Assembly (NCBI GenBank): GCA_046290465.1
Contig: JBKAGP010000001.1
Coordinates: 1,664,001-1,728,000 of the forward strand
Source: Planctomycetota bacterium
GTDB taxonomy: Bacteria > Planctomycetota > UBA1135 > UBA2386
Length of the DNA stretch: 64,000 nt
Direction of reading: 5' to 3'
The position numbers and the translations under genes are program-made. Shown here in pieces: positions 4,700 through 50,021 of the stretch. How positions within the stretch are numbered: the stretch's first letter is position 1; every line of letters starts with the position of its first letter. The notes below the pieces were generated by a model. It was not told where the DNA came from, did not search any database, and saw only the letters and a list, made by a program, of their open reading frames with translations.

Positions 4700-5501
4700 G
4701 GCCGACCCCCGACGGCTGCCGGCGATGCGGGCGCTGCTGGCGATCGCAGCGGCGGCGACGCTCGCAGCGTGCAGCGTGGTGCGCGGCCCCGCGATCCCGG
4801 TCTGGCACCGACTGCACGAGGCTCCGGCCGGGCCGGCGAGCGGCCTGGTCGTGATGTTGCCCGGCATCGGGGACACCGGCGAGGACTTCGTGCGCAACGA
4901 CATGGTCGCACGCATCCACGCGGTCGCCCCCCACCTCGACGTCGCCACCGTCGACGCCAACCTCGGCTACCACGTTCGCGGCATCCTGGCCGAACGCGTG
5001 CACCAGGACGTGATCCAGCCGCGGCGCGATCGCTACCGCGAGATCTGGATCGTCGGCATCTCGCTCGGAGGCCTCGGCGCCACGACCTACGCGGCGAGCT
5101 ACCCGCACGTCGTCGACGGCGTGCTGCTGCTGGCGCCGTTCCTCGGCGAAGACGACGTCGTCGACGAAGTCGCGCGGGCCGGCGGCGTGCGCTCGTGGTC
5201 GGCGCCCGAGCTCGATCGCTTCGCCAACCCGATGCGGCGCCTCACGCACCGGGCGTGGAGCTGGGCGCGCGAGGTGGCCGAAGGCACCGGCGACCAGCCG
5301 GTCGTGCTGCTGGGCTACGGCCGGCACGACCGCTACGCCCGCGCCCACGGCATGCTCGCCGAGGCGCTGCCCGCGGGCAGCGTCGCGACCGTGGACGGCG
5401 CGCACGACTGGCAGGCCTGGCGCGACCTGTTCGACGTGCTCCTGCCACTGGCGTTCGGCGAGGCGCCGTCCGATCGCGGCCGCGAGCGCTTCGCGCCGTA
5501 G
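4686..5501 (+). CDS. Alpha/beta-hydrolase lipoprotein
   Basis: Lipobox LAAC, oxyanion-hole MLPGIGD, nucleophile elbow GISLGG, C-terminal DGAHDW catalytic His. Confidence 0.8.
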   Translation: MTTAEADPRRLPAMRALLAIAAAATLAACSVVRGPAIPVWHRLHEAPAGPASGLVVMLPGIGDTGEDFVRNDMVARIHAVAPHLDVATVDANLGYHVRGILAERVHQDVIQPRRDRYREIWIVGISLGGLGATTYAASYPHVVDGVLLLAPFLGEDDVVDEVARAGGVRSWSAPELDRFANPMRRLTHRAWSWAREVAEGTGDQPVVLLGYGRHDRYARAHGMLAEALPAGSVATVDGAHDWQAWRDLFDVLLPLAFGEAPSDRGRERFAP

Positions 5502-5560
5502 ACGGCGGGCTGCACCACGCTCTGGCACCTCGGGCCCTGGTCATATCAGGCCTTGGCACC

Positions 5561-17675: not shown

Positions 17676-17927
17676 GTGGGAAGAGTAGGTTGCGGAACTT
17701 GCCATCTTCAACAACGTGACCGTGGAGCGGGTATCCCGACGGCCGCCCAAGGTAACGCGGGGCCCGCGTCGGCTCGGCACACGACGTCGGGCACGGAGGC
17801 AGGCGGCCAGCCGGTCGGCCCCGCGTAGGATGCCCACGCGCGCCGCCGCCTGCGGTCGCCCGCTTCCTCATCGACAGACAACTCCCATTTGCTGCAACGC
17901 TCCGAGCCGCTGCGGCATACCCAAGGC

Positions 17928-28745: not shown

Positions 28746-29133
28746 GCCGCCGCTGCCGGGCCGTTCGCCGGCAGGGCGAATCTCTCCGCAAACTCGGAGG
28801 GAAGGGCTTGTTGCAACCTTGACCGACCCATCGCAGGTCGATAGGGTCCGGCGTCCCTACGGCCTCTTTGCGTCCCGAGGAGGTCTGGGCTCACCCGGAG
28901 CAACGGGTCGCTTCTCTCTCCCCTCCCCGTCGTCTGTGGCATGCAGGACGGTCCGAGAACGGCGGCGCGCCAACCGAAGTGAGTGCTCTTTGCTCCGCTG
29001 GTTCCGGCCCGACGCTGCGCGCGCAGCCGAGTGCCGAACGCGTCCCGCGCCGCCCTCACGAACGCGCGGCTGCGCACCTTCGGAGCCACCAAAGCCCCCC
29101 TCTCCCCGATCGCCACTTTTGCAGGCATTCAGC

Positions 29134-31752: not shown

Positions 31753-31794
31753 GCAGCTGCATCACCGGCCGGTGGACCCACCAGCCAGAAGAAG

Positions 31795-31832
31795 ACGGCC
31801 GGCATCGCAAGATGCCGGCCGTTTCGGTTTTG
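31795..31832 (+). terminator. Intrinsic terminator after secretin A
   Basis: 12-bp perfect stem ACGGCCGGCATC-GCAA-GATGCCGGCCGT followed by TTCGGTTTT. Confidence 0.75.
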
Positions 31833-32102
31833 CGCGCATGCCGGCCCGGCGCCCTCCGACGCCCGCGACGTGCGCCGCGACCGCGGCGGCCCGCCCCTCC
31901 CCCGCCGACGCCGCCTTGGAACACATGAACCCATCGCTATCCTGCGCCGTTCCACCCCTCGGCGGAGTGCGGCTTTGGCCCCCGAACCCGCACTCTGATC
32001 GCGACTTCCGGTGCCGTCTCCCCTCGTCGGCACCCGTCCACCCATTTTCGGTTCCCGAATTCCCTGCAGCCCTTCTCTGCAGCCAACCATCGGAGTCTGT
32101 CT

Positions 32103-34985: not shown

Positions 34986-35021
34986 TCCCCCACCGCAACA
35001 CACATCCAAGGACTGACCACG

Positions 35022-36140
35022 ATGCGATTCCTCCCCCTGTTGTTGCCGGTGGCGCTGCTGCTGCCGGCCACCGCGACCGCCCAGAAGATCAACGACGTCG
35101 TCCTCAAGAAGGACGGCGCGCGGGTGCGCGGTCTCGAGATCACCGACTTCCTGCTCTCGGGCGTGCGCGGCAAGCGCGGCTCGGATGACTTCGAGCTGCC
35201 CGCGCACCTCGTCAAGGACATCGAGTGGAGCGACCTGCCCGAAGAGTTCACCGCCGGCAAGGGCGCGATGGGCCGCGGCGACTTCGCCGCCGCCGCGCAG
35301 TTCTTCGGCGCGGTGCAGAGCGACCGGCCGCTGGTGAAGGCCGACGCCGAGTTCTTCAAGATCAAGGCCGCCGTCGCCGGCATCGGCGCGGACAAGGGCG
35401 CCGCCGCCACCGCGGCGTCGCACATGAAGGACTGGATCAGCAGCAACGTGAACCACTGGCGCACGCCCGAGGCCCTGCTGCTGCAGGGTCGCGCCGAGCG
35501 CCTGGCCGGCACCGCCGGCGCGGCCACGACGACGCTGAAGGAACTCGACGACCGCGCGATCCGCGACGGCTTCGGCACGATCTGGAGCGCGCGCGCCAAG
35601 TACGAACTGGCCCTGACGCTGGTCGCCGACGGCAAGGCCGCCGAGGCCCGCACGCAGTTCAAGTCGGCCAGCTCGGCCGCCGACACGGCGCTCAGCACGA
35701 CCGATACCGACAAGCCGGAGCTCGAGAACCTGAAGACGCTCGCGCGCGTCGGCGAAGGCGAGACCTACCTCGTCGACAAGGACTTCAAGCAGGCGGCGGC
35801 GTTCTTCAAGAGCCTCGCCAACAGCAGCACGCCCGCGCTGAAGGCCGCCGCGGCCGCCGGCGAGGGCGAAGCGATCTTCCTCGACGCCGTCGCCAAGGAC
35901 GACGCCAACGGCCTGCGCCGCGCGCAGATGGCGCTGGCTCGCGCCAGCGTCTTCGACAGCACCAGCGGCGAGTCGAGCGCCAAGGCGAACTACTACCTCG
36001 GCCGCTGCCTGCTGGCGCTCGGCGCGCAGAAGGAGGGCGACTCGTTCAAGCAACGCGCCCAGCAGTACTTCGAGATCGTCTACACGTCGTACCCGTCGAC
36101 CCGCTGGGCCGGCCTGGCGAAGACCGAGTCGCAGAAGTAG
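35022..36140 (+). CDS. Exported TPR-like protein with N-terminal small beta domain
   Basis: Signal peptide ..ATA-Q; DVVLKKDGARVRG beta motif; TPRs (AKANYYLGRC; YPSTRWA, a YbgF/CpoB-like C-terminus). Confidence 0.8.
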   Translation: MRFLPLLLPVALLLPATATAQKINDVVLKKDGARVRGLEITDFLLSGVRGKRGSDDFELPAHLVKDIEWSDLPEEFTAGKGAMGRGDFAAAAQFFGAVQSDRPLVKADAEFFKIKAAVAGIGADKGAAATAASHMKDWISSNVNHWRTPEALLLQGRAERLAGTAGAATTTLKELDDRAIRDGFGTIWSARAKYELALTLVADGKAAEARTQFKSASSAADTALSTTDTDKPELENLKTLARVGEGETYLVDKDFKQAAAFFKSLANSSTPALKAAAAAGEGEAIFLDAVAKDDANGLRRAQMALARASVFDSTSGESSAKANYYLGRCLLALGAQKEGDSFKQRAQQYFEIVYTSYPSTRWAGLAKTESQK

Positions 36141-36337
36141 TCGTCGCTCTGCCGCTGGGCCAACCCGCTGGGCCAACCCGCCTGGCAGGGCGCCACGAGG
36201 CCGTTCCCGGCGCAGATTTGTTTGCGCCGGGGGCTTCCCAGCGGCCCCCCGGTCGAGCAAACTTCCTCCCCCCTCTTTTTCGAATCCTTCGAAGCCCCTC
36301 TCCCCCGCCTCGCGCCCGTTGTGAGGCCGCAGTTCCC

Positions 36338-37060
36338 ATGATCCTCAAGCACGTGCCGTCCGTTCGGTTCCTCGCCGTTTCCGCGCCCCTTCTGTTCGCC
36401 AGCTCGCTGTTCGCCCAGGAAGGGGATGGCGGCGCGACGGAGAAGCCGGGCTTCCTCGAAGACGTCATCGACAACGCCGGCGTCATCGGTGGCCTCATCG
36501 TCCTCATGTCGATCATCGCGCTGGCGCTGATCATCGAGAACTTCATGTCGATCAAGCGCGAGAAGATCGCGCCGCCCGACCTGCTCGACGAGATCGAGGC
36601 GCTGTTCGACGGCGAGAACTTCCAGGACGCGGTCGAGCTGTGCGAGCAGGAGAAGAACTACATGACCAACGTCGTCGGCGCTGGTCTGTCGAAGCTCGGC
36701 CACGAGTTCGAGACCATGCAGACGTCGATCCGCGAGATGCAGACCGAGGAGTCGGTCAAGCTCTTCCAGAAGATCGGCTGGCTGTCGCTGATCTCGGCCA
36801 TCGCGCCGATGATGGGTCTGTTCGGCACGGTGACGGGCATGTTCGACACGTTCGGCACGATCGCGGCGTCGGGCGGCAACGTCTCGCCGGCGAAGCTCGC
36901 AGGCGGCATTAAGGGCGCGCTCGTCACGACGATGCTCGGCCTGATGGTCGCCATCCCGGTCGGCATCGGCTTCTTCGTGATGCGCAACCGCGTCATCCGC
37001 ACCTCGACGGAAGTCAACGCCATCACCGAGGACCTGTTCGAGCGCTTCCGCTCGAAGTAG
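36338..37060 (+). CDS. exbB: MotA/TolQ/ExbB proton-channel protein
   Basis: Signal-like N-terminus, TM1, then IAPMMGLFGTVTGM and GIKGALVTTMLGLMVAIP. Confidence 0.92.
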   Translation: MILKHVPSVRFLAVSAPLLFASSLFAQEGDGGATEKPGFLEDVIDNAGVIGGLIVLMSIIALALIIENFMSIKREKIAPPDLLDEIEALFDGENFQDAVELCEQEKNYMTNVVGAGLSKLGHEFETMQTSIREMQTEESVKLFQKIGWLSLISAIAPMMGLFGTVTGMFDTFGTIAASGGNVSPAKLAGGIKGALVTTMLGLMVAIPVGIGFFVMRNRVIRTSTEVNAITEDLFERFRSK

Positions 37061-37184
37061 TCCCCCGGAACAGGCCGATCCGAGCCGCACCGAACCTCCC
37101 GCACGGGAACCACGTTCGTAGCGGCCTGGATCTCACCCCGCATCGCGTCGCCCCACGGCGGCGCACAACCGGAGGAACCGCCGA

Positions 37185-37727
37185 GTGAACATCGAAAAAA
37201 TCGTTCAGGAGGAGCTCGACATGGACATGACGCCCATGATCGATTGCGTCTTCCTGCTGATGATCTTCTTCGTGCTGGTCATCGACCTCAGCCAGAAGAA
37301 CCTCGAGGACCTGATCCTGCCGCGTGCAGAGTTCCAGGAGCCTGACGACGAGCCGCCCGAGAACCGCCCGATCCTGAACGTGCTGCAGAACGGCACGGTC
37401 ATCTATCAGGGCAAGGTCTACTACGACGCGCTCAAGGACGGCAAGAACTACGCCCCCATCAAGAAGCTGCTCGCGGAGATCCGCCGTGTCGGCATCACCA
37501 ACAAGACGCTGCACCTCGTCCCGAAGGACGTCGGCGGGGTCGACGCGATGGTGATGGACGAGCCGGTGCTGATCCGTGCCGACAAGTGGACCGAATGGCA
37601 CTACGTCGGCGAGATCATGAAGCAGTGCTCGCAGCCCGACATCGCGTTCTGGAAGGTGCAGCTTGCCCTTTCGGAAGAGGACAAGGAAACCGGCGAGAAG
37701 AACACCAGCCTGACGAGGGGGCAGTAA
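37185..37727 (+). CDS. exbD: ExbD/TolR family protein 1
   Basis: DMTPMIDCVFLLMIFF with the essential TM Asp; periplasmic VLIRADK; GGAGG SD, GTG start. Confidence 0.9.
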   Translation: MNIEKIVQEELDMDMTPMIDCVFLLMIFFVLVIDLSQKNLEDLILPRAEFQEPDDEPPENRPILNVLQNGTVIYQGKVYYDALKDGKNYAPIKKLLAEIRRVGITNKTLHLVPKDVGGVDAMVMDEPVLIRADKWTEWHYVGEIMKQCSQPDIAFWKVQLALSEEDKETGEKNTSLTRGQ

Positions 37728-37730
37728 GCC

Positions 37731-38279
37731 ATGAGCGCAATCGACGACGCCCAGGAAGAAGCCAAGGCCGACATGACGCCGATGATCGACGTCGTGTTCC
37801 TGATGATCATCTTCTTCATCTGCATCGAGTTCAAAGTCCTCGAGTCGAAGCTCGACGCGTTCCTGCCGACGGACAAGGGCAGCCAGAACACCGTCGTGGA
37901 GCCCGAAGAGCAGCTCGCCATCAAGATCCACGTCGAGAGCAACGGCTCCAAGGACTTCAGCAAGTACGGTGGTCAGGGCATCAACCCGGGAACGGGTCGC
38001 CCGAACCGCTTCGTGCTGAACGGCCACAAGGTGAAGTGGGAGATCGGCCCGAAGCCGGTCTACTCGCTCGCCGAGGTCCAGAAGGAGCTGAAGCGGATCG
38101 CCGACGATCCGGCCAGCCAGATCCCGGACAAGAAGACCGGTGGCACCAAGCTGATGAGCTGTGTCATCGAGGCCTACCCGGGCACCTACTACGAAGACGT
38201 CGCCAAGACCAACGACGCCGCCAACAACGCCGGCTTCACGGAAGTCAACTTCGGCGGCGGCCTCGGCCCGGGCAAGTAG
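37731..38279 (+). CDS. exbD: ExbD/TolR family protein 2
   Basis: DMTPMIDVVFLMIIFF with the essential Asp; C-terminal VIEA..GTYYEDV..AGFTEVNF. Confidence 0.88.
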   Translation: MSAIDDAQEEAKADMTPMIDVVFLMIIFFICIEFKVLESKLDAFLPTDKGSQNTVVEPEEQLAIKIHVESNGSKDFSKYGGQGINPGTGRPNRFVLNGHKVKWEIGPKPVYSLAEVQKELKRIADDPASQIPDKKTGGTKLMSCVIEAYPGTYYEDVAKTNDAANNAGFTEVNFGGGLGPGK

Positions 38280-38405
38280 GGCAGCAGACGCGGGCAACTC
38301 CAGCCCGCTTCTCCAGCCAGCTCCTCTTGCAAGCTGGCCGCTGCACTCTCCCGCTGCACTCTCCCGCTGGCCGCAGCCCGCCCCCCGCGGGCAGCTCGGC
38401 GCCCC

Positions 38406-38444
38406 GAACAGGCCCGCACCCCGGTGCGGGCCTGTTCTGGTTTT
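38406..38444 (+). terminator. Intrinsic terminator after exbD2
   Basis: 14-bp stem GAACAGGCCCGCAC-CCCG-GTGCGGGCCTGTTC followed by TGGTTTT. Confidence 0.75.
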
Positions 38445-38825
38445 GCAGTGCCTCGCGGCCGCGCCCACCCCACCCCGGTCGGGTTCTCGAGTACTGCCCC
38501 GGCATTGCGACACTGCCGGCCGCAACCACGCCCCCATTGGCTCCACAACCCACTGCCACATCGCGAAAAACCCCTGGCACGACCTCTCGGGTGCCGCTAG
38601 CGTTTGGCCCCTTGCGACCGGCTCTCCCTACGTTTGCCGGCCGCAACAACGTCCGCTCCGTGTCGTCGCAAGTCCCTCTCGATCGGTCGCATGTGAAACG
38701 TCCCCTCCACATGCGGCGATGCCTCCACATCGTGTTCGTCCACCGATCGCTTGTCGCCGTCTCGGAAATCGGGCCCATCCCCAATGGGTCCAATCGCAAT
38801 CTGGTTACGCACCGAGCGTGAAACG

Positions 38826-41420
38826 ATGGCTCTCGAACATCCGCGCCTTCTCGCTGCTTCGCTGACGGTCGCCTTCCTGGCGGCCTCCTGCTCCACCCCG
38901 AACGACGGCTCCAACGAGTCGTCGAACCCGAACGTCGCCAACGAGTCCAACTCGAACGGCGGCTCGGCGATGACGGGCGAGCCTTCCTCCAACCAAGACC
39001 CGCAGTCCCCCGGCCGGCAAGGCCAGGGCACGGTCGCCGACCAGCGCAAGGCCGTGCTGGTTGCCAACTGGCTCGACAATGCGCGCAAGCTGCGCATGCA
39101 GGGCGAGCTGCAGGCGGCCAAGCTCGAGCTGCTGAAGGCCAAGGACCTGGCGCCCACCAACGAGCAGGTGCGCAGCGAACTGGCTGCGGTGCAGGCCGAG
39201 CTCGGCGAGCCGGTCGGCGTCATCACCACCTACGGTGACGAGGTCATGCGCCTGCAGAAGATCGCCGAGGAGCGCGCCCGCGCCACGGTGCAGAACCAGC
39301 TGCAGACCGCCCAGCAGCAGATGGCGGACAAGAACTTCGCCGGCGCGATCGAAGAGCTGCGCCGCGCGTCGCTCGCGATCGAGATCAAGGACGACGTCGA
39401 CTGGATGGGCCTGCCCAGCCAGGTCGCCGCGGCCAAGGCCGAGGCCGAGCGCCTCTACGACGAGCAGCAACGCTCCAGCCAGGCGGCCGAGAACGCCCAG
39501 CTGGCCGAGCAGCTGCGCCGCGAGTTCGAGCGCAACCAGGCGCGCAAGCGCGCGCAGGTCGACGGCCTGATCCAGCAGTCGCAGGTTGCCTTCGAGGCGC
39601 GCCAGTTCGAGCGTTCGCAGGACTTCGCCCAGCGCGCGCTGGAGATGGACCCGTCGAACTCGCTGGCCTACGAGATGCTCAACGCCGCGACCAAGGCGGC
39701 GCGTGACTCGGCCAACGACGACTACTGGCGCCGTCGCGCCCTCGAGATCCGGCAGATGCTCGAGGCGCACGAGGAGCTCAAGACGCCCCAGACCGACATC
39801 CTGGTCATGGACGACGAGGTCTGGGAGCGCGCCAACCGGCGCAGCACCCGCCGCGGCGACAAGCGCCTGCTCAGCCCCGAGGACGCGGCGCTGACGCAGC
39901 TGGTCGACACCGCGCAGGTCGGCCGTCTCACCTACACGGACGAGACCGGCGCCTACCTCGACGTGCTCAAGAACCTGAGCCTGATCACGGGCGTGCAGAT
40001 CCTGACCACGCCGGAAGCGCGCACCGTCATCGAGGACGAGAGCCTGACCGTCGTCATCGAGCTGGCCTCGTCGATGACGCTCAAGAACTTCCTCAACCAC
40101 ATGGTCTCGCGCAGCGAGAACCTCGCCTGGACGATCCGCGAAGGCGTGGTCGTGGTCGGCGACAAGTCGCAGGCCGCCGGCACGCTGATCACCGAGATCT
40201 ACCCGGTCAAGGACCTGATCTTCCAGCAGACGCAGTTCCTGCCGCCGACCATCCGCGACATCCCGACCGAGGACGCCGGCGATGTCCCGCGCACCGGCGG
40301 TGAGGGCGACGATCCGATCGCCGGCATCGAGCTGACCGACCTGGTCGACACGCTGATGAACGCCACGGACCCGACCTACTGGGAGACCGAAGGCGTCGAG
40401 ATCCGCCCGGAGGACTCGGGCCTGCTGTCGGTGACGGCGAGCCCGGAGATGCAGGACAAGCTGGTCAAGGTGCTGGCGAACATGCGTCGCTTCCAGACGC
40501 CGATCGTCACCATCGACTCGAAGTTCCTGACCATCTCCCGCAACTTCCTGCAGGAGATCGGCATCGACATCCGCGGCCTCGGCGGCTCGGGCAACAAGGG
40601 CGACACCGTGTCGCTCGACGACGTCACCAACGGCCTGGTCAACAACGCTTCGCGCGGCCAGGACAACGGCGGCACCGGCGACCCGGCGGCCAACCCGCTG
40701 GCCGGCGCGTTCTTCAACGACGGCAGCGACGGCGACATCCGCGCCCGCACCGAGAACTACTTCGTCAACGACCTGGGTCGCGTGCTCTCCCCCACCGGTG
40801 GCCTGACCGCCGGCTGGACGCTGATCGACGACACCCAGCTCAACCTGATCCTGCGCGCCGTCGAGAAGCGCCAGGACGGCGAGGTCGTCAACAGCCAGAT
40901 CCTGTCGGTCGTCAACCGCGGCCGCGGCCACGTCGCCGTCATCAACCAGACGGCCTACGTGCGCGACTTCGACGTCGAAGTGGCGCAGGCGGCGTTCATC
41001 GCCGACCCGAAGGTCGACGTGATCCAGGACGGCATCGTGCTGGACGTGCAGCCGATCATCCAGAACGACCGGAAGTACATCACGCTCAACCTCAACCCGA
41101 CGGTTGCCGAACTGCAGCGCCCGATCCCGACGTTCACGACGTCGCTCGCCGGCTCGACGCTGCCGGTCACGGTCCAGCTGCCGAACCTCACGGTCACGAA
41201 CTTCTCGACGACCGTGAAGGTCCCGGACGGCGGCACGGTGCTGCTGGGCGGCCTGCGTCAGGTGCTCACCAAGGAGCGCCGCGCCGAGGTCCCGCTGCTG
41301 TCGCGCCTGCCGCTGATCTCGTTCCTGTTCAAGCAGGAGGGCTCGGCCGACGAGAACCGCAGCCTGATGGTGATGGTGCGCGCGCAGATCACCGACATCG
41401 TCGAAGAGAGCGAGCGCTAG
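38826..41420 (+). CDS. Secretin-family outer-membrane lipoprotein B, paralog of 29134-31752
   Basis: Lipobox FLAASC; coiled-coil/TPR N-terminus; IVTIDSKFL, AYVRDFDVEVAQAA, GIVLDVQP, TTVKVPDGGTVLLGG, VPLLSRLPLISFLF..LMVMVRA. Confidence 0.88.
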   Translation: MALEHPRLLAASLTVAFLAASCSTPNDGSNESSNPNVANESNSNGGSAMTGEPSSNQDPQSPGRQGQGTVADQRKAVLVANWLDNARKLRMQGELQAAKLELLKAKDLAPTNEQVRSELAAVQAELGEPVGVITTYGDEVMRLQKIAEERARATVQNQLQTAQQQMADKNFAGAIEELRRASLAIEIKDDVDWMGLPSQVAAAKAEAERLYDEQQRSSQAAENAQLAEQLRREFERNQARKRAQVDGLIQQSQVAFEARQFERSQDFAQRALEMDPSNSLAYEMLNAATKAARDSANDDYWRRRALEIRQMLEAHEELKTPQTDILVMDDEVWERANRRSTRRGDKRLLSPEDAALTQLVDTAQVGRLTYTDETGAYLDVLKNLSLITGVQILTTPEARTVIEDESLTVVIELASSMTLKNFLNHMVSRSENLAWTIREGVVVVGDKSQAAGTLITEIYPVKDLIFQQTQFLPPTIRDIPTEDAGDVPRTGGEGDDPIAGIELTDLVDTLMNATDPTYWETEGVEIRPEDSGLLSVTASPEMQDKLVKVLANMRRFQTPIVTIDSKFLTISRNFLQEIGIDIRGLGGSGNKGDTVSLDDVTNGLVNNASRGQDNGGTGDPAANPLAGAFFNDGSDGDIRARTENYFVNDLGRVLSPTGGLTAGWTLIDDTQLNLILRAVEKRQDGEVVNSQILSVVNRGRGHVAVINQTAYVRDFDVEVAQAAFIADPKVDVIQDGIVLDVQPIIQNDRKYITLNLNPTVAELQRPIPTFTTSLAGSTLPVTVQLPNLTVTNFSTTVKVPDGGTVLLGGLRQVLTKERRAEVPLLSRLPLISFLFKQEGSADENRSLMVMVRAQITDIVEESER

Positions 41421-41506: not shown

Positions 41507-41611
41507 GCGCGCTTGCTGCGCGCGCGCACCTTGCCAGCGCGCCCGTCTTGCGCCACAACTAACCGGCGGAGTCTCTCCCCCACCGCGCCCGGACTTGGCG
41601 AGCCCACCACC

Positions 41612-42331
41612 ATGACCAAGCCCCTCGACGCCATCTTCTTCGACATCGACGACACGCTGTTCTCGACGACCGTGTTCGCCGACAAGGCGCGTCGCAACGC
41701 CGTCGACGCGATGATCCGCGCCGGTCTGCAGGCCGACCGCAAGGACGCGATGCGCGAGTTGGAGGACGTGATCGCCGAGTTCTCGAGCAACTACGGCGGC
41801 CACTTCGACAAGGTGCTGGATCGCCTCGGCAAGGAGTCGCACGAGGGCCACAACCGGGCCGTCATCGTGGCCGCCGGCGTGGTCGCCTACCACGGCACCA
41901 AGGAGAGCGAGCTGAAGGTCTACGACGACGTCTACGCGACGCTGAAGTGGCTCGCCGACAAGCCAATCGTGCGCGGCATCATCTCGGCCGGCATCACGAT
42001 CAAGCAGGCCGAGAAGCTCGTGCGCCTCGACGTGCTCGAGTTCGTCACGCCGTCGGCGATCTTCTTCACCGACCAGGTCGGCTTCAGCAAGCCCAACCAC
42101 AAGCTCTACAAGCGCGCGCTGCAGCCGTTCGGGCTCGACCCGTCGCGCTGCATCTACGTCGGCGACAACCCGACGCACGACATCGATCCCTGCAACGAGC
42201 TCGGCTGGACCACCGTGCGCATCCGCCGCAGCGGCCGCTACGCGCACGTCGACGGCCAGACCGAGGCCGACCACGAGATCCGCGACTTCCTCGAACTGCG
42301 CCGCCTGCTCGAGACCGAGTACGGGCTGTAG
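41612..42331 (+). CDS. HAD-superfamily hydrolase, subfamily IA
   Basis: Motif I FFDIDDTL, motif II GIISAG, motif III SKP, motif IV YVGDNPTHDI. Confidence 0.9.
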   Translation: MTKPLDAIFFDIDDTLFSTTVFADKARRNAVDAMIRAGLQADRKDAMRELEDVIAEFSSNYGGHFDKVLDRLGKESHEGHNRAVIVAAGVVAYHGTKESELKVYDDVYATLKWLADKPIVRGIISAGITIKQAEKLVRLDVLEFVTPSAIFFTDQVGFSKPNHKLYKRALQPFGLDPSRCIYVGDNPTHDIDPCNELGWTTVRIRRSGRYAHVDGQTEADHEIRDFLELRRLLETEYGL

Positions 42332-42429
42332 CGGCCGATCGGTCTCGGTGACCAGGAGCAGGGTGGCCAGGCGCACGGTGGCCTGGCGCACGGTGGCCAG
42401 GCTGCGACCAGCGCCCCGCGCCTACGCCC

Positions 42430-43521
42430 CTACTTGAGCTGCTCCCAGAAGTCCTCGGGCATGTCGTGCGCGATCTTCAGCGCGCCGTTGCTGCCGCCGT
42501 AGATCGGCTCCTCGATGCGGATCACCTTGCCGCCGCCGAGGTGCTCCTTCATCGCGTTCTCGACCGCGCTGTCGAGTCCCTTGACCATCGAACCGCCGCC
42601 GGCGAGCAGCACGCGGTCCTTCAGCCGGGCCTGGAACTCCGGGTCGAACGTCGAGACCAGCTTCTTGATGCCCTCGAGGATCGGCTCGATCAGGATCGAG
42701 CAGGCCTTCTGCAGCTGGTCGGTCAGGTCGAACTGGGTCGGCTTGCCGTCGACCGGCAGCTCGACCTTGACGCGCTCGGGGGCGTCTCCGACGAAGCCGT
42801 AGCGCTCCTTGATCTGCTTGATCATCTGCACCGTGAACTGCGCGCCCGGGCAGCTCGCTTCGATCTGCCTCGCCAGCTCGGCATCGACCGCGTCGCCGGC
42901 GATGTCGAACATCACCTGGTCGGTCTCCTCCGGCATCGTGCCGTGCATGCGGCAGAGGTCGGTGGTGCCTGCGCCGATGTCGATGACCAGCACGTCCTCG
43001 AGCCAGTCGAGGCCGTAGGCGACCGCGAACGGCTCCGAGCACAGCATCACCGAGTCGACCGTCTCGCGAGCGGCTTCGATGATCGCCTCGCGGTTCTTCA
43101 TCGAGGCTTCGGCCGGCGCGCCGATCACGCAGTAGACCAGCTCGTCCGAGCGCGGCTTGGCCAGCCGGATGGCTTCGGCGATCAGGTCACGCGCGGCCTT
43201 CATGTTGGCCTTGGACTCCTCGTCGGCGTCGGCGCCGCTCTTGATGACGCCCTTCTCGAGCGGCTTGTAGAGCTTCAGCGACATGCGCTTCTCGATCGCT
43301 TCCTTGCCGAACAGCACGTCCTTCTTGAGGAGCTTCTTGGCGACGACGTCCTTCGGGTAGCCGACGGTCGAGAAGACCGTCTCGCGGACGCCGTTGCTCG
43401 CCGACACCGAAGTGCGCGACGTGCCGAGGTCCATCCCGATGTAGAGCACGCCGTGGTCCTTGTTGGCGTCGTCGCCGCCCTGACCGGCCGCGTTCGTATC
43501 CGTGTCGTTCGTATCCGTCAT
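42430..43521 (-). CDS. mamK: MamK-like bacterial actin
   Basis: LYIGMDLGTS, STVGYPKDVVAKKLL, VIGAPAEAS..N, SEPFAVAYGLD.L, IDIGAGTTDLC.MHGT.P..DQ, QARLKDRVLLAGGGS, GALKIA..MP..FWEQL. These follow the MamK-specific pattern as I recall it (VVGYPKD, SEPF..YGL, GTVP..EDQ, C-terminal YW..L) rather than MreB. Confidence 0.85.
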   Translation of the reverse strand: MTDTNDTDTNAAGQGGDDANKDHGVLYIGMDLGTSRTSVSASNGVRETVFSTVGYPKDVVAKKLLKKDVLFGKEAIEKRMSLKLYKPLEKGVIKSGADADEESKANMKAARDLIAEAIRLAKPRSDELVYCVIGAPAEASMKNREAIIEAARETVDSVMLCSEPFAVAYGLDWLEDVLVIDIGAGTTDLCRMHGTMPEETDQVMFDIAGDAVDAELARQIEASCPGAQFTVQMIKQIKERYGFVGDAPERVKVELPVDGKPTQFDLTDQLQKACSILIEPILEGIKKLVSTFDPEFQARLKDRVLLAGGGSMVKGLDSAVENAMKEHLGGGKVIRIEEPIYGGSNGALKIAHDMPEDFWEQLK

Positions 43522-43548
43522 GAGTTCCTAACCTCCAACTGGCGGACC

Positions 43549-44343
43549 TCAGGCGCCCTTGCTGCGCTTCTGCAGCTTCAGGTTGGCCTTGAAGATGTCC
43601 GCCATCAGTTCTTTCTTCTTGCCGGCCTGCGTGTCGGATTCGTCGAGGCCCTGGACCTCACGATAGATCGACGAGATCCCGGACTCGACATCCTTCATCG
43701 CCGAGACCTTCGCGAGCCGCTGCTCGGTCGACGCCAGCGTATCGTTGAGCTTCTTGATGCGCCGCTGCAGGTTGCCGACCTCGCGGTCCTGCAGCGCCTT
43801 GCGCGCGGTCTCGGCGGTCTTGCGCTCACCGCCGACGACGTCCATCACCAGCGCCATCAGCCGCTCTTCGACGGTGCCCATGTCGGCCTCGCCGCCGCCG
43901 GCCAGCGAACGCACGACCTCGGCGACCTTGGTCGCGATCTCGGCGTTCTCGCCCTGGTAGCGGGTCGCCAGCTCGACCGCGTCCTGCTCGAGCTTGAGCT
44001 TCAGCGCGCCCTGCTTCTGCGCCAGTTCGCGGCGCATCAGGTCGATCTCCTCCTCGGCGCGCTCACGCGCCCGCTCGACCTCGGACTTCTCGCGCTGCAG
44101 GTCCTCGTTGCTGCGCAGCAGGCGCAGGAACTCGGCCTTGGTCGACTCCGCGACCGCCTCGCGCTCGATGCCGACCAGCCGCGACTTGAGGCTGCGGTGC
44201 ACCGCCGCCTCGATCAGCGCGATGATGCGATCGATGCCGAGCACGTTGACGTTCTGGACGCCCTTCTTCTTGAGCTTGTCCAGCGACGTGCGGAACGACA
44301 TCTGCCGCACCGCGTCCTTCAGCGTCTCCTTGAACCCGGCCAC
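43549..44343 (-). CDS. Coiled-coil protein of unknown function
   Basis: GTG start 4 nt after the upstream stop; two long heptad regions (LQREKSEVERARERAEEEIDLMRRELAQ; EVGNLQRRIKKLNDTLASTEQRL); no TM. Confidence 0.8.
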   Translation of the reverse strand: MAGFKETLKDAVRQMSFRTSLDKLKKKGVQNVNVLGIDRIIALIEAAVHRSLKSRLVGIEREAVAESTKAEFLRLLRSNEDLQREKSEVERARERAEEEIDLMRRELAQKQGALKLKLEQDAVELATRYQGENAEIATKVAEVVRSLAGGGEADMGTVEERLMALVMDVVGGERKTAETARKALQDREVGNLQRRIKKLNDTLASTEQRLAKVSAMKDVESGISSIYREVQGLDESDTQAGKKKELMADIFKANLKLQKRSKGA

Positions 44344-44346
44344 GCG

Positions 44347-45117
44347 CTACTCCGCCTCCTCCGGGATCGGGTCGTAGGCCAGCCGCCGGTCGCTGTCCGG
44401 GTCCTGGCCGCGCACCTCGGTGACGAACGTGCCGAGCACGTTGCCGCCCATGTCGCTGAGCACCTGCCACGCGTCGCGCGACTGCTTCTTCAGCGAGTGC
44501 TCGAGCCGCACCACCAGCAGCGTGCCGTCGGCCGCCGACGACAGCACGCCGGCGTCGGTCGACGGCAGCACCGGCGGCGTGTCGATGACGACGTACTGGA
44601 ACCGTTCCTTCAGCCGCTGCAGCAGCTGATCGAGGCGCGACGAGCTGAGCACCTCGGCCGGATTCTCGACGCGCGAACCGGCCCCCAGCAACATCAGGTT
44701 GCGGTAGCCCGCGGGGCGCAGCAGCTTGTCGACCGGCGCGTGGCCGAGCAGCACGTCGGTCAGGCCGGCCTCGTGGTTGAGGTTGAGGTAGCGCTCGCAG
44801 CTCGGCCGCCGCAGGTCCGCGTCGACCAGCACGACCTCCTGCCGCTCGAGTTCGGCGAACGCCATCGCGAGGTTCAGCGCCGACACCGTCTTGCCCTCGC
44901 CGCGCACCGCCGAGGTCACCACCAGCGTCTTCGGCTCGCCGTCCGGGTTCATCGCCACCAGGCGGTTGCGCAGCCCGCGCACCTGCTCGGCGCGGAAGCC
45001 CGCAGGCTCGTGGAACAGCACCAGGTACGGGTTCACCGACTGGTCGACGACGACGACCATGTCGTCCTCCCCGAGCTCGGGATCACCTGGTTGGGTTGGC
45101 TTCTTGCGACGGAACAT
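44347..45117 (-). CDS. CpsD/CapB (BY-kinase)-like P-loop ATPase
   Basis: AEQVRGLRNRL, Walker A TSAVRGEGKT, A' LVDADLRRP, GLTDVL, NPAEVL, Walker B VIDTPP, DGTLLVVR. Confidence 0.87.
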   Translation of the reverse strand: MFRRKKPTQPGDPELGEDDMVVVVDQSVNPYLVLFHEPAGFRAEQVRGLRNRLVAMNPDGEPKTLVVTSAVRGEGKTVSALNLAMAFAELERQEVVLVDADLRRPSCERYLNLNHEAGLTDVLLGHAPVDKLLRPAGYRNLMLLGAGSRVENPAEVLSSSRLDQLLQRLKERFQYVVIDTPPVLPSTDAGVLSSAADGTLLVVRLEHSLKKQSRDAWQVLSDMGGNVLGTFVTEVRGQDPDSDRRLAYDPIPEEAE

Positions 45118-45325
45118 GCAGACGGACGCGGCTGTAGCCGCTCATCGGGTTTTCGGAATCCGTGCGGGTCGCACTTGTTCCGGACTGGATGCGATTGGCG
45201 GATACGAGACGCCCGCACGGGCGGGCAGCCGCTGTGGGCGCCGGCAAGCCGCCATGCGAACGGCAACTCGTGACGTGGTGCGCGCCCACGGCTTTGCAGT
45301 GTATAGCGATTTGGAATCGCGGGGA

Positions 45326-45922
45326 CTACGGACAAACGCGTCCGGAAAAACCGGGGCCCGAGAATGCTCCGGTGCCATCGAGGTCGAACGTCAGCCAGCC
45401 GAACCGGAACCGGTAGGCCTCGACCGCGCCACTGGCGCCGAGCGTCGCCGTGACCTCGCCGCCGCCCAGCGCCGGGCAGAGCCGCACCTCGGTACGGCCG
45501 CCATCGGCCGCGCGCTCGGCCAGCACGCGCGCCGACGTCGGCGGCACGGCCAGTTCGGCCAGGATGCCGGCGAGCACCAGCGCCAGGTGCGGCTCGGCGT
45601 CGGCCAGCGGCGGCGGCGCCCGGTAGTCGCCGTCCGGCGTGCTCGCCGCAAGGCCGCCCTGCCGTGCCGTGACGTCGAGCACCTTGCCACCGATGTCCGG
45701 AAACAGCTGCACGCGCAGCACCCCGTCGGACCGGTCCCAGACGCCGTCGAACACGCCGGCGAGCTGGTCGGACTCGAGTTCGAGCACGAACGTGCCGCCG
45801 AGCTGGCCGGCGAGCGGCATCGGCGCGACGCGCTGCAGCGTGCTCGCGGTCGGCGGCCCGAACGAACGGCACCCGGCGACCACGAGCAGCGCCAGCAACA
45901 GCGACCGCGAGCGCCTCGTCAT
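45326..45922 (-). CDS. Hypothetical lipoprotein (last gene of the MMPL operon)
   Basis: MTRRSRSLLLALLVVAG-C lipobox; ATG overlaps the MMPL stop; beta-rich (LolA/LolB-like is a guess). Confidence 0.6.
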   Translation of the reverse strand: MTRRSRSLLLALLVVAGCRSFGPPTASTLQRVAPMPLAGQLGGTFVLELESDQLAGVFDGVWDRSDGVLRVQLFPDIGGKVLDVTARQGGLAASTPDGDYRAPPPLADAEPHLALVLAGILAELAVPPTSARVLAERAADGGRTEVRLCPALGGGEVTATLGASGAVEAYRFRFGWLTFDLDGTGAFSGPGFSGRVCP

Positions 45923-48276
45923 CCGGCCCTCCGCGTGCGCGCCAGCAGCGGCGCCAGGACGAACAGGCAGCTCAGCATGCACGCCATCGAGCCGAACGCC
46001 ACCACGCCGCCGAGCAGCTGCAGGCCGGGCGTAGCCGCCAGCAGCAGCGACGAGAATCCGAGCACCGTGCCGACGCTGGTGCGCACGATGCCGACCCCGG
46101 TCGCGCCGGTGTCGGTCGCACCGTGGCGGTAGTGGCCGACCAGGTGCACGCCCTCGTCGACCCCGATGCCGAGCACGAACGGCACCGACACGAAGCTGAT
46201 CATCGACAGCGGCACGTCGAACAGCCGCAGCAGCACCAGCGTCACCACCAGCCCGAGCACGCTCGGCACCAGCGCCAGCAGGCCGTGTCGCAGCGAGCGC
46301 AGCCACCAGGTGACCATGCCGACCGCGAGCAGCGCGGCGATCCAGCACGCCCGCTGCAGGTCGCGCACCAGCATCTCCTCGAGCGCCGCGGTCAGCGTCG
46401 GCCCGCCGTGCAGCACGACGTCGTCGCCGGCGACCTCGCGCAGCTGCTGCTGCAGGTCGAAGAACGCCTCCCGATCCTGGCGCTGCGCCGGCCACAGCGT
46501 CACCGCGCGGTGCGGCCGTCCTTCGAACGTGACAACCTTGCCGGCGGCGGGCGCGTCGCCGTCGTTCGCCAGCCGCCGCTGCAGGTCCGCCAGCGCTGGC
46601 CGGAACGCGGCCGCCTGCAGCCCCTCCCGGTCCAGCGCGGCCTCGGCCCGGCCGACGAAGCCGTCGAGATCGGCCCGGCACGCCTGCACCGCCGCGCGGC
46701 CGGCGGCGGTGTCGCGACGATCGAGGCCGGTCCAGAAGCGCAGCTGCTGCCGTTCGCGCAGCCCGACCAGCGCGGCGTGCAGCGGCGACGCGTCGACCTG
46801 CTCGGGCCACAGCGCCAACACCGGCACGGTCGAGAAGCCGACGCGCTGCTCGATCGTGCGCCGCGCCGCCGACACCGGGTCGCCCTTCGGCCGCACCGCT
46901 TCGGCTTCGGCCGACAGCTCGATGCCGGCGACCAGCAGGTAGCCGACGCCGGCGAGCGCCAGCGCGATGGCCGCCCACGCCGAAAGCGGCGCCGCCCGGT
47001 GCAGCAGCCAGCGATCGGCGGCCGCGGCCAGCGCGCTGCGCTCCGGATCGGGACGGTCGCCGGCCCAGCGCAGCAGCACCGGCAGGGCGAAGATCGTGAA
47101 CAGCACGCTGCCGACGAGGCCGAGCGCCAGCAGCAGGCCGAACGCGCGCAGGCCGCCCTCGGTGCCGGCTCCGATCGCCAGGAACGTCACCGCCGTCGTC
47201 ATCATGTCGATCAGCAGTTCGGGCACCGTGGTGCGCTGCACCTCGCGCACCGCGTCGTCGTGCGCCAGCTCGAGCCGCGCGCGCCGGTAGCGGGCCGCGT
47301 AGTGGATCGCGAAGTCGACCCCGAGGCCGCACAGCACCGCGACCGCAGCGACCGCCACCGTCGGCAGCGCGCCGAAGCAGACCGCGCCGAACGGGATCGC
47401 CCACAGGATCGACAGCATCGCCGGCAGCTGCACCAGCAGCGGCAGGCGCACGCCGCGCATCACCCAGCACAGGTAGAGCGCGATCGCCAGCACCGACCAG
47501 GTGCTGGCGCGTTCGAAGTCGGCCTTGATGCGACGCTGGTCGGCACGCGCGATCGCGTAGCCGCCGAACACGTCGGCCTCGACGTCGAGCGCCTGCAGTT
47601 CGCGGTCGACGAACGCACACAGCTCGGTCGCGAAGTCGGCGTCGTAGGCGTCCCGGGTGCCGCGCAGCTGCAGCAGCGCGCGGGTGCCCTGCTCGAGCAG
47701 CAGCAGGTCCGTGCCCTCGTCGAAGCCGAGCGCCGCGAGCGGATCGGCGTCGGCCAGCACGAAGCGCAGCCCCAGCGGATCCCGCAGCGCCAGCTCGCGC
47801 GCCGCGAGCGGGTCGTCGGCGAGGTCGAACGCGAGCTCCGTGGCCGCCTCCTGCAGCCCTTCCGCCGACAGCCGCGCCGACAGCCGCGCCAGCTGGTCGT
47901 CGTCGAGCTGCCACAGCGGCGCCCGTTCGAAGTGCGCGCGCTGCTCGGCGAACAGCTCACCGCGAGTGCTGGCGACCGCGTCGATCTGCGCGGACGCGCG
48001 CAGCCGTTCGGCGAGTCGGCCGACCTTGTCGGCCAACCCGTCGCCGCGCAGCAGCAGCCACATCACGCGCGCCGGCCGCGAACGGTCGTCGAGCAGCTGC
48101 GCGATGCGCACGTGCGGGTGGTCCGACGGCAGCACCCGCGAGATGTCGGGCTCGAAGCGCACCAGCGGCCAGGCCAGCAGCGCCAGGATCGTGACGACCA
48201 GCGCCGCCGAGATCGTCATGCGCGGCCGCCGCAGCGGCAGCGTGACGACCGTCTCGAACCAGCGCGGCGCACTCAC
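45919..48276 (-). CDS. MMPL/RND-family lipid exporter
   Basis: Two repeats with GLGVDFAIH and GIGVDEGVH, about 12 TMs; GTG overlaps the upstream stop. Confidence 0.87.
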   Translation of the reverse strand: MSAPRWFETVVTLPLRRPRMTISAALVVTILALLAWPLVRFEPDISRVLPSDHPHVRIAQLLDDRSRPARVMWLLLRGDGLADKVGRLAERLRASAQIDAVASTRGELFAEQRAHFERAPLWQLDDDQLARLSARLSAEGLQEAATELAFDLADDPLAARELALRDPLGLRFVLADADPLAALGFDEGTDLLLLEQGTRALLQLRGTRDAYDADFATELCAFVDRELQALDVEADVFGGYAIARADQRRIKADFERASTWSVLAIALYLCWVMRGVRLPLLVQLPAMLSILWAIPFGAVCFGALPTVAVAAVAVLCGLGVDFAIHYAARYRRARLELAHDDAVREVQRTTVPELLIDMMTTAVTFLAIGAGTEGGLRAFGLLLALGLVGSVLFTIFALPVLLRWAGDRPDPERSALAAAADRWLLHRAAPLSAWAAIALALAGVGYLLVAGIELSAEAEAVRPKGDPVSAARRTIEQRVGFSTVPVLALWPEQVDASPLHAALVGLRERQQLRFWTGLDRRDTAAGRAAVQACRADLDGFVGRAEAALDREGLQAAAFRPALADLQRRLANDGDAPAAGKVVTFEGRPHRAVTLWPAQRQDREAFFDLQQQLREVAGDDVVLHGGPTLTAALEEMLVRDLQRACWIAALLAVGMVTWWLRSLRHGLLALVPSVLGLVVTLVLLRLFDVPLSMISFVSVPFVLGIGVDEGVHLVGHYRHGATDTGATGVGIVRTSVGTVLGFSSLLLAATPGLQLLGGVVAFGSMACMLSCLFVLAPLLARTRRAG

Positions 48277-49613
48277 GCGTCGTCTCTCTGCAGCAGCCGT
48301 TCGAGCTGTTCGCGGACCAGCTTGCCGCGCTCGCTGCGCGGCAGCGATGGCACCACCGTGATCCGTCGCGGCACCTTGGCCGCCGGCAGCACCTCGGCGC
48401 AGTGGCGCCGCACGCGTTCGGCGCAGGCGTCGTCCGATGCGACGATCGCGGCGCACGCCGCGCGCCCCTGCTCGTCGCGCCACGGCAGCACCGCGACGTC
48501 CTGCACGTCGTCGAGCTGCGCGATGATGCGTTCGACCTCGCGCGGGTCGACCTTGTGCCCGCCGACGTCGAACACGTCGCCGGCGCGGCCCTGCAGCACC
48601 AGCTCGCCGTCGACGAACGCCCCGAGGTCGGGCGCGACGAAGCGGCCGCCGGCCGGGTTGCCGCAGCCGGACAGCGCGGTGCCGACCGCCGGCGAGGTCA
48701 CCACCACGCGGCCGTCGTCGTCGATCGTCACGTCGACGCCGTCGACCGGCCTGCCGACCGTGCCGCGCTCGGCCGCCTCGCCGGTGCGGTCGTAGCTGAT
48801 GCCGCCGCTCTCGGTCGAGCCGTAGAACGTATGCACCGGCAGGGTGAAGCGCCGCCGGAACGCGGCCGCGACGTCGCGCTGCAGCACCGCCCCCGCCGAC
48901 AGCACCAGCCGCAGGCTGTCGGGCAGCGCGGGCGCGCCGCTGCACAGCGCGCGCAGCAGCGCCGGCACCGCCGGCAGCACCGTGGGTGCCGCCGCGCGCA
49001 TCGCGCCGAGCAGGCCGAGCGGGCCGCTGCCCGGCAGCACCAGTTCGCGGCCCCGGCAGAGCGCCGGCACCAGCAGGTTGCCGACGCCGTAGCTGAACGA
49101 CATCGGCACCGCGGCCAGCACCCGGTCGCCGTCGCCGATGCCCATGGTCCCTTCCAGCGCCGCGCCGTCCGCCAGCAGCTCGGCATCGCCGACCGCGACC
49201 GCGTTGGGTTCGCCGGTCGACCCCGACGTCAACTTGATCGCGCGGTGCTGCCCGGCCGGCGCGCGGCCCTCGCACGGCAGCACGCGCGGTGCCGGCGCAT
49301 CGACGACGATCGCACGCAGCCCGAATCGCGCCGCCAGGTCCAACCGCGGCGCCCGCGGATCGGCCGCGTCGAACAGCATCGCCGCGTCGCCGCGCCGGAC
49401 GCAGGCCAGGAACGCCCCGAGGAACGCGAAGCCGTCCCGCACGCACAGCCCGACCCTCGAGCCCACCGGCGTGCCTGCCAGCAGCTGCTCGAAGAGGCCG
49501 GCGCTTGCATCCAGGTCGGCCCGGCAGCGAATCCCGTCGGGCGTCCATGCGACCGTGGCCGTCGGGTCGGCTTCGAGCAGCGCGGCAAAGGCATCACGGA
49601 CCGTCAACGGCAT
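48273..49613 (-). CDS. AMP-binding (acyl-CoA/acyl-ACP ligase-like) enzyme
   Basis: LTSGSTGEP, PMSFSYG, FYGSTESG, DLG, GR..DVFDVGGHKVDPREVE, LPRSERGK. Confidence 0.88.
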   Translation of the reverse strand: MPLTVRDAFAALLEADPTATVAWTPDGIRCRADLDASAGLFEQLLAGTPVGSRVGLCVRDGFAFLGAFLACVRRGDAAMLFDAADPRAPRLDLAARFGLRAIVVDAPAPRVLPCEGRAPAGQHRAIKLTSGSTGEPNAVAVGDAELLADGAALEGTMGIGDGDRVLAAVPMSFSYGVGNLLVPALCRGRELVLPGSGPLGLLGAMRAAAPTVLPAVPALLRALCSGAPALPDSLRLVLSAGAVLQRDVAAAFRRRFTLPVHTFYGSTESGGISYDRTGEAAERGTVGRPVDGVDVTIDDDGRVVVTSPAVGTALSGCGNPAGGRFVAPDLGAFVDGELVLQGRAGDVFDVGGHKVDPREVERIIAQLDDVQDVAVLPWRDEQGRAACAAIVASDDACAERVRRHCAEVLPAAKVPRRITVVPSLPRSERGKLVREQLERLLQRDDA

Positions 49614-49733
49614 GGAACGCCGAGCGAGACTACGGACTGCCCCCGAACCGGCAAGCCTGCATTGCCCCAGGGACGCCACAACCCGGCCAAACGCGGGACC
49701 TGACGCGTCCGCACCGCTACACTCCAGGCGCAC

Positions 49734-50021
49734 ATGACCAACCAGGTATCGGTCGACCAGCTCAAGGTGATGCTCGTCGACAAGCTCAACTTGAAGTCGG
49801 TGACCGCCGACCAGATCACCGACGATCACGCCCTGTTCGGCCCCGAGGGCCTCGGCCTCGACTCCGTCGACGCGCTCGAACTGGTGCTCGCGATCGAGTC
49901 CGAGTATGGCATCCAGATCCAGGACGAAGAGGTCGGCCGCGAGGCCTTCCACTCCGTGCAGGTGCTCTGCAACTTCATCAACCAACGCCTCGCCGCGGGC
50001 GACGCATCCGCCGGCGCGTGA
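49734..50021 (+). CDS. Acyl carrier protein
   Basis: LFGPEGLGLDSVDALELV with the phosphopantetheine Ser. Confidence 0.92.
   Translation: MTNQVSVDQLKVMLVDKLNLKSVTADQITDDHALFGPEGLGLDSVDALELVLAIESEYGIQIQDEEVGREAFHSVQVLCNFINQRLAAGDASAGA

Follow-up and report, generated by a model that had tools for sequence, protein, structure and literature searches.

A MamK-Type Actin of Planctomycetota Encoded with a Modular Family of Candidate Adaptors and a BY-Kinase-Type ATPase

Described MamK-related actins and the locus in this study

Saltatorellin is the name given to an actin that strains of the Saltatorellus clade encode in addition to MreB and whose branch lies near that of MamK (Wiegand et al. 2019, 10.1101/817700; here and below, published sources are cited for the parts of them that were available). 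In the same paper, the MamK-like protein of Poly30, tagged with mCherry, assembled into filaments in E. coli as well as in M. gryphiswaldense delta-mamK, and treadmilling of saltatorellin was proposed to drive shape-shifting (10.1101/817700). The clade has a G+C content of approximately 70% (10.64898/2026.10.26.761892), and saltatorellin is merely cited in PMC11032199. We analyzed a three-gene locus of a Planctomycetota bacterium whose 6.59-Mb genome is held in one contig (JBKAGP010000001.1); the locus lies at positions 42430 to 45117 of a 64,000-nucleotide stretch of that contig, called the window below, which has a G+C content of approximately 70%. It encodes an actin of the saltatorellin kind, a helical protein that we call the adaptor, and a P-loop ATPase of the bacterial tyrosine kinase (BY-kinase) type, and both partners recur beside such actins in other genomes. 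Like saltatorellin, the actin is a second actin beside MreB, is closest to MamK, and belongs to a Planctomycetota genome of approximately 70% G+C. The main text of 10.1101/817700, which was covered apart from its supplements, differs in containing no partner genes, no range of the adaptor module described below and no swapped heads, and the available part of the mBio paper likewise does not mention partner genes of the MamK-like Planctomycetota actin. The kind of actin itself had already been published as saltatorellin (10.1101/817700), a naming of which an earlier note made from the letters of this DNA was unaware. The actin adds a member to this named kind, and the three-part module with its modular adaptor family seems to be undescribed in print, as appears to be the case for the partnership of the adaptor and the ATPase with a saltatorellin-type actin. 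The termini of saltatorellin deduced from the published primers (MTDITTD... and ...YWEQLK) resemble those of the window actin (protein P0001; MTDTNDT... and ...FWEQLK) and are not identical to them; ends of the YWEQLK type occur in the actin family, and none of the retrieved proteins begins with MTDITTD.

Other systems share single aspects of the locus. Those built on MamK and its adaptors (MamJ, MamY, and McaA/McaB) use the same actin subfamily and likewise pair a filament with an adaptor, but the magnetosome genes MamP, MamI, and MamQ were not found here, and the adaptor of this locus has no Pfam or NCBIfam match (its likeness to the MamJ and MamY sequences was not compared). To our knowledge, no BY-kinase-type ATPase partner has been reported for MamK. 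In ParR, a small N-terminal head is followed by a C-terminal peptide that attaches to ParM, the actin of that system. The locus may share with ParM-ParR-parC and Alp7A-Alp7R a way of working in which a small dedicated adaptor, the product of a neighboring gene, captures the actin filament with its C-terminal tail; it differs from them in being chromosomal and phylum-wide, in the placement of the adaptor gene before the actin gene, in the signaling-domain heads of its adaptors, and in that no centromere repeats were found. The Firmicutes BY-kinases CapB and PtkA, which have the separate activators CapA and TkmA, share with the window ATPase a soluble kinase fold of approximately 250 amino acids in which the Walker A, A', and B motifs are present; the window ATPase, too, probably depends on a partner whose gene is adjacent. 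Unlike these kinases, it has one conserved C-terminal tyrosine and is linked to an actin adaptor. Pfam scans of the neighboring ORFs detected no membrane activator or polysaccharide genes, with no confident gene call in the 3 kb upstream. BeeR, a three-stranded tubular actin of the Verrucomicrobiota, is a MamK relative whose function is given as unknown (PMC11929497) and is, as here, a MamK-related actin from a non-magnetotactic member of the PVC (Planctomycetes-Verrucomicrobia-Chlamydiae) group. Its N-terminal extension of 30 to 50 residues (PMC11929497) finds only a partial parallel in the approximately 23 low-complexity residues of the window actin.

The features of the locus, in order of transcription, are as follows.

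44347..45117, minus strand: BY-kinase-fold P-loop ATPase, 256 amino acids (TIGR01007, solved chains, alignment of 27 homologues)
43549..44343, minus strand: helical adaptor, 264 amino acids, GTG start (AlphaFold2 model and gene position)
43552..43866, minus strand: conserved C-terminal module of the adaptor, residues 160 to 264, a proposed actin-binding element (alignment A2, 28 modules)
42430..43521, minus strand: MamK-family ("saltatorellin"-type) actin, 363 amino acids (NCBIfam MamK, PDB 5jyg match, alignment A1)

The coordinates of the open reading frames (ORFs) agree with the three tightly packed genes of the earlier note, with gaps of 3 nucleotides between the ATPase and adaptor genes and 27 nucleotides between the adaptor and actin genes. 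The G+C content at third codon positions was 0.95 to 0.96 in all three ORFs, which is typical of coding frames in DNA of 70% G+C. One contig of X19, a relative 90 to 95% alike, bridged the adaptor-actin junction (42877 to 43736), although this run was possibly DNA and its status as RNA was a guess. A scan of positions 42200 to 45700 for promoter and terminator consensus sequences gave 0 and 0 sites, such consensus sequences being uninformative at 70% G+C.

As judged by family models and solved relatives, the gene at 42430..43521 is an actin of the MamK clade and not an MreB. Its product scored just over the cut-off of the NCBIfam MamK model NF040964 (414.4 bits, with a cut-off of 400) and under the cut-offs of the BeeR equivalog model (212.4 bits versus 530) and of both MreB models (NF010539, 70.2 bits versus 293; TIGR00904, 54.5 bits versus 365.75). 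It passed the Pfam MreB_Mbl domain model (66 bits), which is a general actin-fold match only, and scored only 22 bits with ParM. The best solved relative was MamK of Magnetospirillum (5jyg; 249 bits, E value of 6.5e-73, residues 24 to 362), and the others were BeeR (8r2n; 140 bits) and MreB (1jce; 47 bits), which puts the window actin much nearer MamK than BeeR and bears out the earlier assignment to a MamK type outside MreB. A true MreB (438 bits) is encoded elsewhere in the genome, separate from the MamK-family actin. Four motifs, D31-L-G-T-S35, S162-E-P-F165, D181...D188 (DIGAGTTD), and G308-G-G-S311, were invariant in an alignment of nine sequences (A1); DLGTS, SEPF, DIGAGTTD, and GGGS are the nucleotide-binding motifs of the actin fold.

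Relatives of this actin formed more than 120 clusters at 73 to 92% identity, and the named clusters were almost all from Planctomycetes/Planctomycetota, with two labeled only "bacterium"; their NCBI labels were "MamK family actin-like protein" or "rod shape-determining protein". At an E value of at most 1e-40, the actin was present in 145 of 401 sampled Planctomycetota genomes, with a distribution that was patchy by family. A species-level genome collection yielded 575 stretches with a relative of the actin, from Planctomycetota metagenome-assembled genomes and a few with other submitter labels. An actin tree was built from 39 of approximately 100 actin loci, with the MreB of the same genome as a very long outgroup branch and no named magnetotactic MamK among its members. 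Partner type clustered on this tree (12 changes, compared to 22.7 when shuffled), and no order of events was drawn from it.

The partner genes and their linkage to the actin

The ATPase scored over the cut-off of the TIGR01007 eps_fam model for BY-kinase domains (121.9 bits versus 108.05), and its best solved relative was the CapA/CapB chimera 4jlv (106 bits), compared to approximately 40 bits for MinD. BceF, VpsO, Etk, and Wzc were also near, with the best solved relatives spanning 73 to 106 bits, so that the BY-kinase-like ATPase of the earlier note was recognized correctly. Its Walker A (GEGKT), Walker A' (VDADLRRP), and Walker B (IDTPPV) motifs are intact, and GEGK[TS], VDADLRxP, and IDTPPV were conserved in the alignment of 27 ATPase homologues.

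The adaptor matched no Pfam or NCBIfam family. Its AlphaFold2 model was almost wholly helical, with a mean predicted local distance difference test (pLDDT) score of 74 and a predicted template modeling (pTM) score of 0.33, and contained helices at residues 61 to 149 and 155 to 229 and a separate last helix at residues 240 to 263 behind a low-confidence loop. An N-terminal head of approximately residues 1 to 55, with a short extended segment and helices at residues 27 to 55, was modeled at low confidence (pLDDT of 59 to 69). The adaptor is probably a coiled-coil dimer formed through its long helices. In alignments, the adaptors differed in their middle part and were conserved in a C-terminal module of approximately 100 residues, with the consensus LxRRIxKL..TE..L...G[IV]xS[IV]YRxVQGL...KKxLMxxIFxANLxLQK in the 28 modules of alignment A2. 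When a profile of these modules was searched against 1.84 billion proteins, 1095 representatives were found at an E value of at most 1e-3 and 827 at an E value of at most 1e-10; in these representatives the module was nearly always C-terminal, in proteins of 250 to 400 amino acids. A word-indexed homologue search with the module gave 203 near relatives that were mostly unnamed or "hypothetical", with stray labels of prefoldin subunit 5, YlxW, and Skp; two of them carried a precomputed Pfam entry. A PADLOC match of the adaptor to LmuB (E value of 0.0009, 15.5 bits) was rejected as noise, and the actin and the ATPase had no PADLOC match. The ESM Atlas gave a best score of 0.84 for the adaptor, below the level reached by shuffled proteins and with every match "hypothetical", and was also set aside.

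The three-gene order seen in the window proved to be conserved, most strictly among near relatives. In the 80 nearest species genomes, 70 loci had at least 1.8 kb of upstream flank; the adaptor gene was directly upstream of the actin gene in all 70 and the ATPase gene preceded the adaptor gene in 65. A tblastn search of the 1.5-kb flanks of 29 actin loci revealed the adaptor at 26 of these loci and the ATPase at 13. A phylum-wide set comprised 20 actin loci from 12 families, analyzed over 8 kb on either side with the module found by an iterated profile. A module-bearing gene was directly upstream of the actin gene in 18 of these loci, L042 and L055 being the exceptions, and the ATPase gene was adjacent in nine, in three cases co-directional and in six divergent. 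The linkage therefore survives rearrangement, as the six divergent placements indicate. No other gene family was common to the 20 loci. The co-occurrence of the module with the actin was strict in one direction: the module (E value of at most 1e-6) was detected in 105 of the 401 genomes, all of them within the 145 that were actin positive, and in none of the 256 that were actin negative.

Two further observations concern partner genes in individual loci. In L055 (9213 to 11900, genome G168), where the actin is approximately 51% identical, the upstream gene encodes an 895-amino-acid protein with FG-GAP and ASH domains and no module, and it may represent an alternative partner that serves a divergent subfamily of the actin. 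Some genomes, such as G191, G371, G071, and G345, contain two actin copies and two or three module-bearing genes; at L040 (G371:C76), a second full-length adaptor is encoded 7 kb from the actin, and duplication of the module seems to have taken place within the taxonomic order that includes L040 and similar genomes.

The part of the adaptor that precedes the module varied in kind between lineages. We scanned 113 of 150 listed module representatives against Pfam, the remainder being 35 proteins shorter than 213 amino acids and two with earlier identifiers. A GGDEF domain was found as the N-terminal head of 28 of the 113, nothing in 84, and a weak SLOG match in one; GGDEF heads were also present in seven of the fetched loci. 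The long-headed adaptors of L054 and L056 matched no Pfam family at an E value of at most 0.01. None of the 28 GGDEF-headed representatives contained GG[DE]EF, and in 30 of 35 aligned GGDEF rows (counted by eye, with two pairs that look like the same protein) an RxxD motif was kept five residues before the degenerate site. In GGDEF domains, RxxD is the motif of the I-site, and its presence without the catalytic motif fits a domain that binds cyclic di-GMP (c-di-GMP). The heads described here fit such a non-catalytic, c-di-GMP-binding domain, as far as these motifs can indicate.

Other proteins joined the module to an ATPase. At L130, positions 4766 to 5869 form a single 367-amino-acid ORF that adjoins the actin gene and encodes the module behind a P-loop ATPase domain. 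The representatives P0370, P0379, and P0303 have the same architecture under source names of Mrp/MinD-like ATPase. Such ATPase-module fusions connect the ATPase and the actin with the adaptor module, and all three are taken to form one functional unit. Together, the heads and fusions suggest that the module may be the constant, actin-facing end of the adaptor and the head its variable regulatory input.

A possible mechanism and competing explanations

Cell division in Planctomycetota proceeds without FtsZ, and shape changes are reported for the Saltatorellus clade, with a saltatorellin-type actin as the only proposed driver. A partner family with swappable heads and a linked ATPase make of an orphan actin a testable system in which the tether, the gating signal, and the cargo can be sought, and the adaptor and the ATPase become concrete candidates for the control of a little-understood bacterial cytoskeleton. 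We think it rather likely that the three genes form one cytoskeletal module of non-magnetotactic Planctomycetota, made up of an actin, an adaptor, and an ATPase input. The MamK-type actin would polymerize with ATP into filaments, and the dedicated helical adaptor would bind it through the conserved C-terminal module, that is, through a short loop motif and an amphipathic last helix. The adaptor would dimerize through its long helices, and its C-terminal loop and helix would dock on the actin in the way that the ParR tail docks on ParM. The other end of the adaptor would receive the signal, which in the window would come through the small N-terminal head and the separately encoded, catalytically intact BY-kinase-type ATPase, while in other lineages the same C-terminal module is joined either to a P-loop ATPase domain or to a GGDEF domain that is dead and retains RxxD. 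Through its nucleotide state or through tyrosine phosphorylation, the ATPase may act by way of the adaptor head on where and when the filament is tethered or assembled, and the role in the cell may be shape change, division, or positioning in cells that lack FtsZ. A bolder extension is conceivable, although we doubt it: this would be a signal-gated actin cytoskeleton in which one adaptor family plugs interchangeable heads (a partner ATPase of the tyrosine-kinase type, a P-loop domain fused to the module, or a GGDEF domain that is dead yet reads c-di-GMP) into a MamK-type filament, so that a second messenger or phosphorylation would set its anchoring and drive shape change or FtsZ-independent division.

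Several points weigh against the reading of the three genes as one module. The ATPase gene was adjacent in only nine of the 20 phylum-wide loci, and 40 of the 145 actin-positive genomes had no module at an E value of at most 1e-6, mostly in families with actins that are approximately 50% identical, so the pairing of adaptor and actin is not universal. Related genomes are not independent samples, and profiles of helical proteins can attract false matches, a concern that is countered by the non-heptad motifs of the module and by gene position. The C-terminal tyrosine cluster of BY-kinases is absent from the window ATPase, which has one tyrosine near its C terminus; most of the 27 aligned ATPases have a single tyrosine (RLAYD or RFSYR) and some have none, and kinase activity is uncertain because of this missing cluster. 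The Walker A lysine is absent from the fused heads of P0370 and P0379, in both of which the sequence was inspected. The orthology of the window actin to the published Poly30 protein, likely as it is, is drawn from the termini of the two proteins.

Two alternatives retain some of the three genes and assign them another task. In one, the locus is a chromosomal system of DNA segregation like ParMRC or Alp7, with the adaptor as a ParR-like protein whose head binds DNA and whose tail binds a pushing filament. The adaptor does parallel ParR in its small N-terminal head and its presumptive C-terminal actin-binding peptide, its model has the short extended segment and helices at residues 27 to 55, and Planctomycetota lack FtsZ (PMC11032199). 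That part of the model has low confidence, however (pLDDT of 59 to 69), iterated centromere-like repeats were absent from positions 45050 to 46000, where the only matches were two-copy, low in identity, and chance-like, and the heads of relatives are GGDEF or ATPase domains rather than DNA-binding folds. Plasmid ParM and Alp proteins are fast evolving, unlike this actin, which is present as a single chromosomal copy and is conserved at 73 to 92% across its more than 120 clusters. Given the lack of centromere repeats, the nature of the heads, and this strong conservation, a ParMRC-like system is improbable. In the other alternative, the ATPase is an ordinary BY-kinase of polysaccharide export that merely adjoins a two-part, actin-adaptor module. 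The score over the TIGR01007 cut-off, the capsule and exopolysaccharide kinases among its nearest solved structures, and the 11 of 20 phylum-wide loci in which it is not beside the actin would fit this explanation. Against it stand the missing tyrosine cluster and the failure of Pfam scans of the neighboring ORFs to find Wzz/CapA-like, Wza, or glycosyltransferase genes alongside the ATPase. Its adjacency to the adaptor in 65 of 70 near relatives, which persists divergently in other families, and the existence of ATPase-module fusion proteins make an unrelated exopolysaccharide kinase unlikely.

The following genes adjoin the operon downstream and were identified by Pfam.

41513..42331, convergent to the operon and its nearest downstream neighbor: HAD hydrolase gene
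38751..41420, plus strand: second secretin, 889 amino acids
37185..38279, plus strand: two ExbD genes
36200..37060, plus strand: ExbB gene

The remaining alternatives look to these neighbors or to the name of the actin family. The earlier note had suggested that the filament could serve the adjacent secretin/ExbB-ExbD-ExbD machine as its cytoplasmic track, much as MreB serves Agl-Glt gliding; a role as stator partner belongs to the same reading. In favor of this, among 50 near relatives whose downstream sequence extended to 4 kb or more, the HAD, secretin, and ExbD genes adjoined the operon in 39, the adjacency persisted down to approximately 66% actin and 46 to 50% secretin identity, and downstream synteny outlasted upstream synteny. 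However, the two loci are convergent with the HAD hydrolase gene between them, so they share no transcript, and in 18 loci of other families secretin, ExbD, and HAD genes were found within 8 kb on either side in none. In the single-contig relatives G389 and G384 the two loci are megabases apart, and in L084 and L116 the triad is kept without a secretin neighbor. Relatives of the second secretin (E value of at most 1e-40) were present in 270 of the 401 genomes, usually with two matches per genome, and in families from which no actin was recovered (f28, 15 of 16 genomes; f14, 7 of 8; f11, 3 of 3; f20, 3 of 4); the secretin machine therefore occurs in many genomes in which no such actin was detected, and the proposed tie of the actin to the secretin locus is not supported. 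To judge from this distribution, the adjacency looks like synteny inherited within one clade. We do not think that the actin module is part of the neighboring secretin/ExbBD machine, and a role as its track is, in our estimate, highly improbable. Of the three-part system proposed in the earlier note, the single module stood, by gene order, co-occurrence, and ATPase-adaptor fusions, and its tie to the secretin/ExbBDD locus found no support; the positioning of a non-magnetosome cargo, also proposed there, would be one conceivable role. The locus could also be the decayed remnant of a magnetosome gene cluster, as the MamK family hidden Markov model over its cut-off and the clusters reported in some Planctomycetota metagenome-assembled genomes (PMC7602337) might suggest. 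In the whole 6.59-Mb genome, this gene alone scored over the MamK family cut-off, while the best MamP match reached 23 bits (cut-off of 300), MamI had no match, and the best MamQ match reached 70 bits (cut-off of 250) and fits a generic LemA protein. Pfam scans of 25 window ORFs found none of MamA, MamB, MamE, MamM, MamO, and mreC/mreD, for which no dedicated family search was made, and these results uphold the earlier view of a MamK-type actin without a magnetosome island. With the actin present in 145 of the 401 genomes with conserved partners of its own, and as strongly conserved as described above, a magnetosome remnant is effectively refuted and for practical purposes excluded. The annotation "MamK family" in Planctomycetota genomes does not indicate magnetotaxis.

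Neighboring genes and other observations

The envelope locus to which the second secretin belongs extends over 28819 to 41420 (plus strand) and also holds a 977-amino-acid secretin with TPR, a 960-amino-acid TPR protein, and a 372-amino-acid ORF without a family. On the other side, the approximately 3 kb upstream of the operon (45118 to 48273) contain only long ORFs that overlap and occupy both strands (862, 1209, and 890 amino acids) and that had no Pfam match, and no confident gene call was obtained there. The minus-strand ORF at 48273 to 49985 (570 amino acids) matched AMP-binding domains only from residue 250; probably either its called start is too far upstream or its N-terminal part is something else. 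The nearest relatives carry an AMP-ligase gene approximately 5 kb upstream of the actin gene. Farther away, a plus-strand ORF of 910 amino acids at 17889 to 20621 joins sigma-70 regions 2 and 4 of the extracytoplasmic function type (residues 47 to 183) to Big_1 and CarboxypepD_reg domains and, if real, would be an unusually long sigma-factor fusion. DNA nearly identical to positions 42300 to 45400 (54 to 100% of sampled words) was present in runs X1 to X15, from 13 studies of algae, coral, aquaculture, and marine metagenomes, and these run labels hint at a marine, host-surface habitat.

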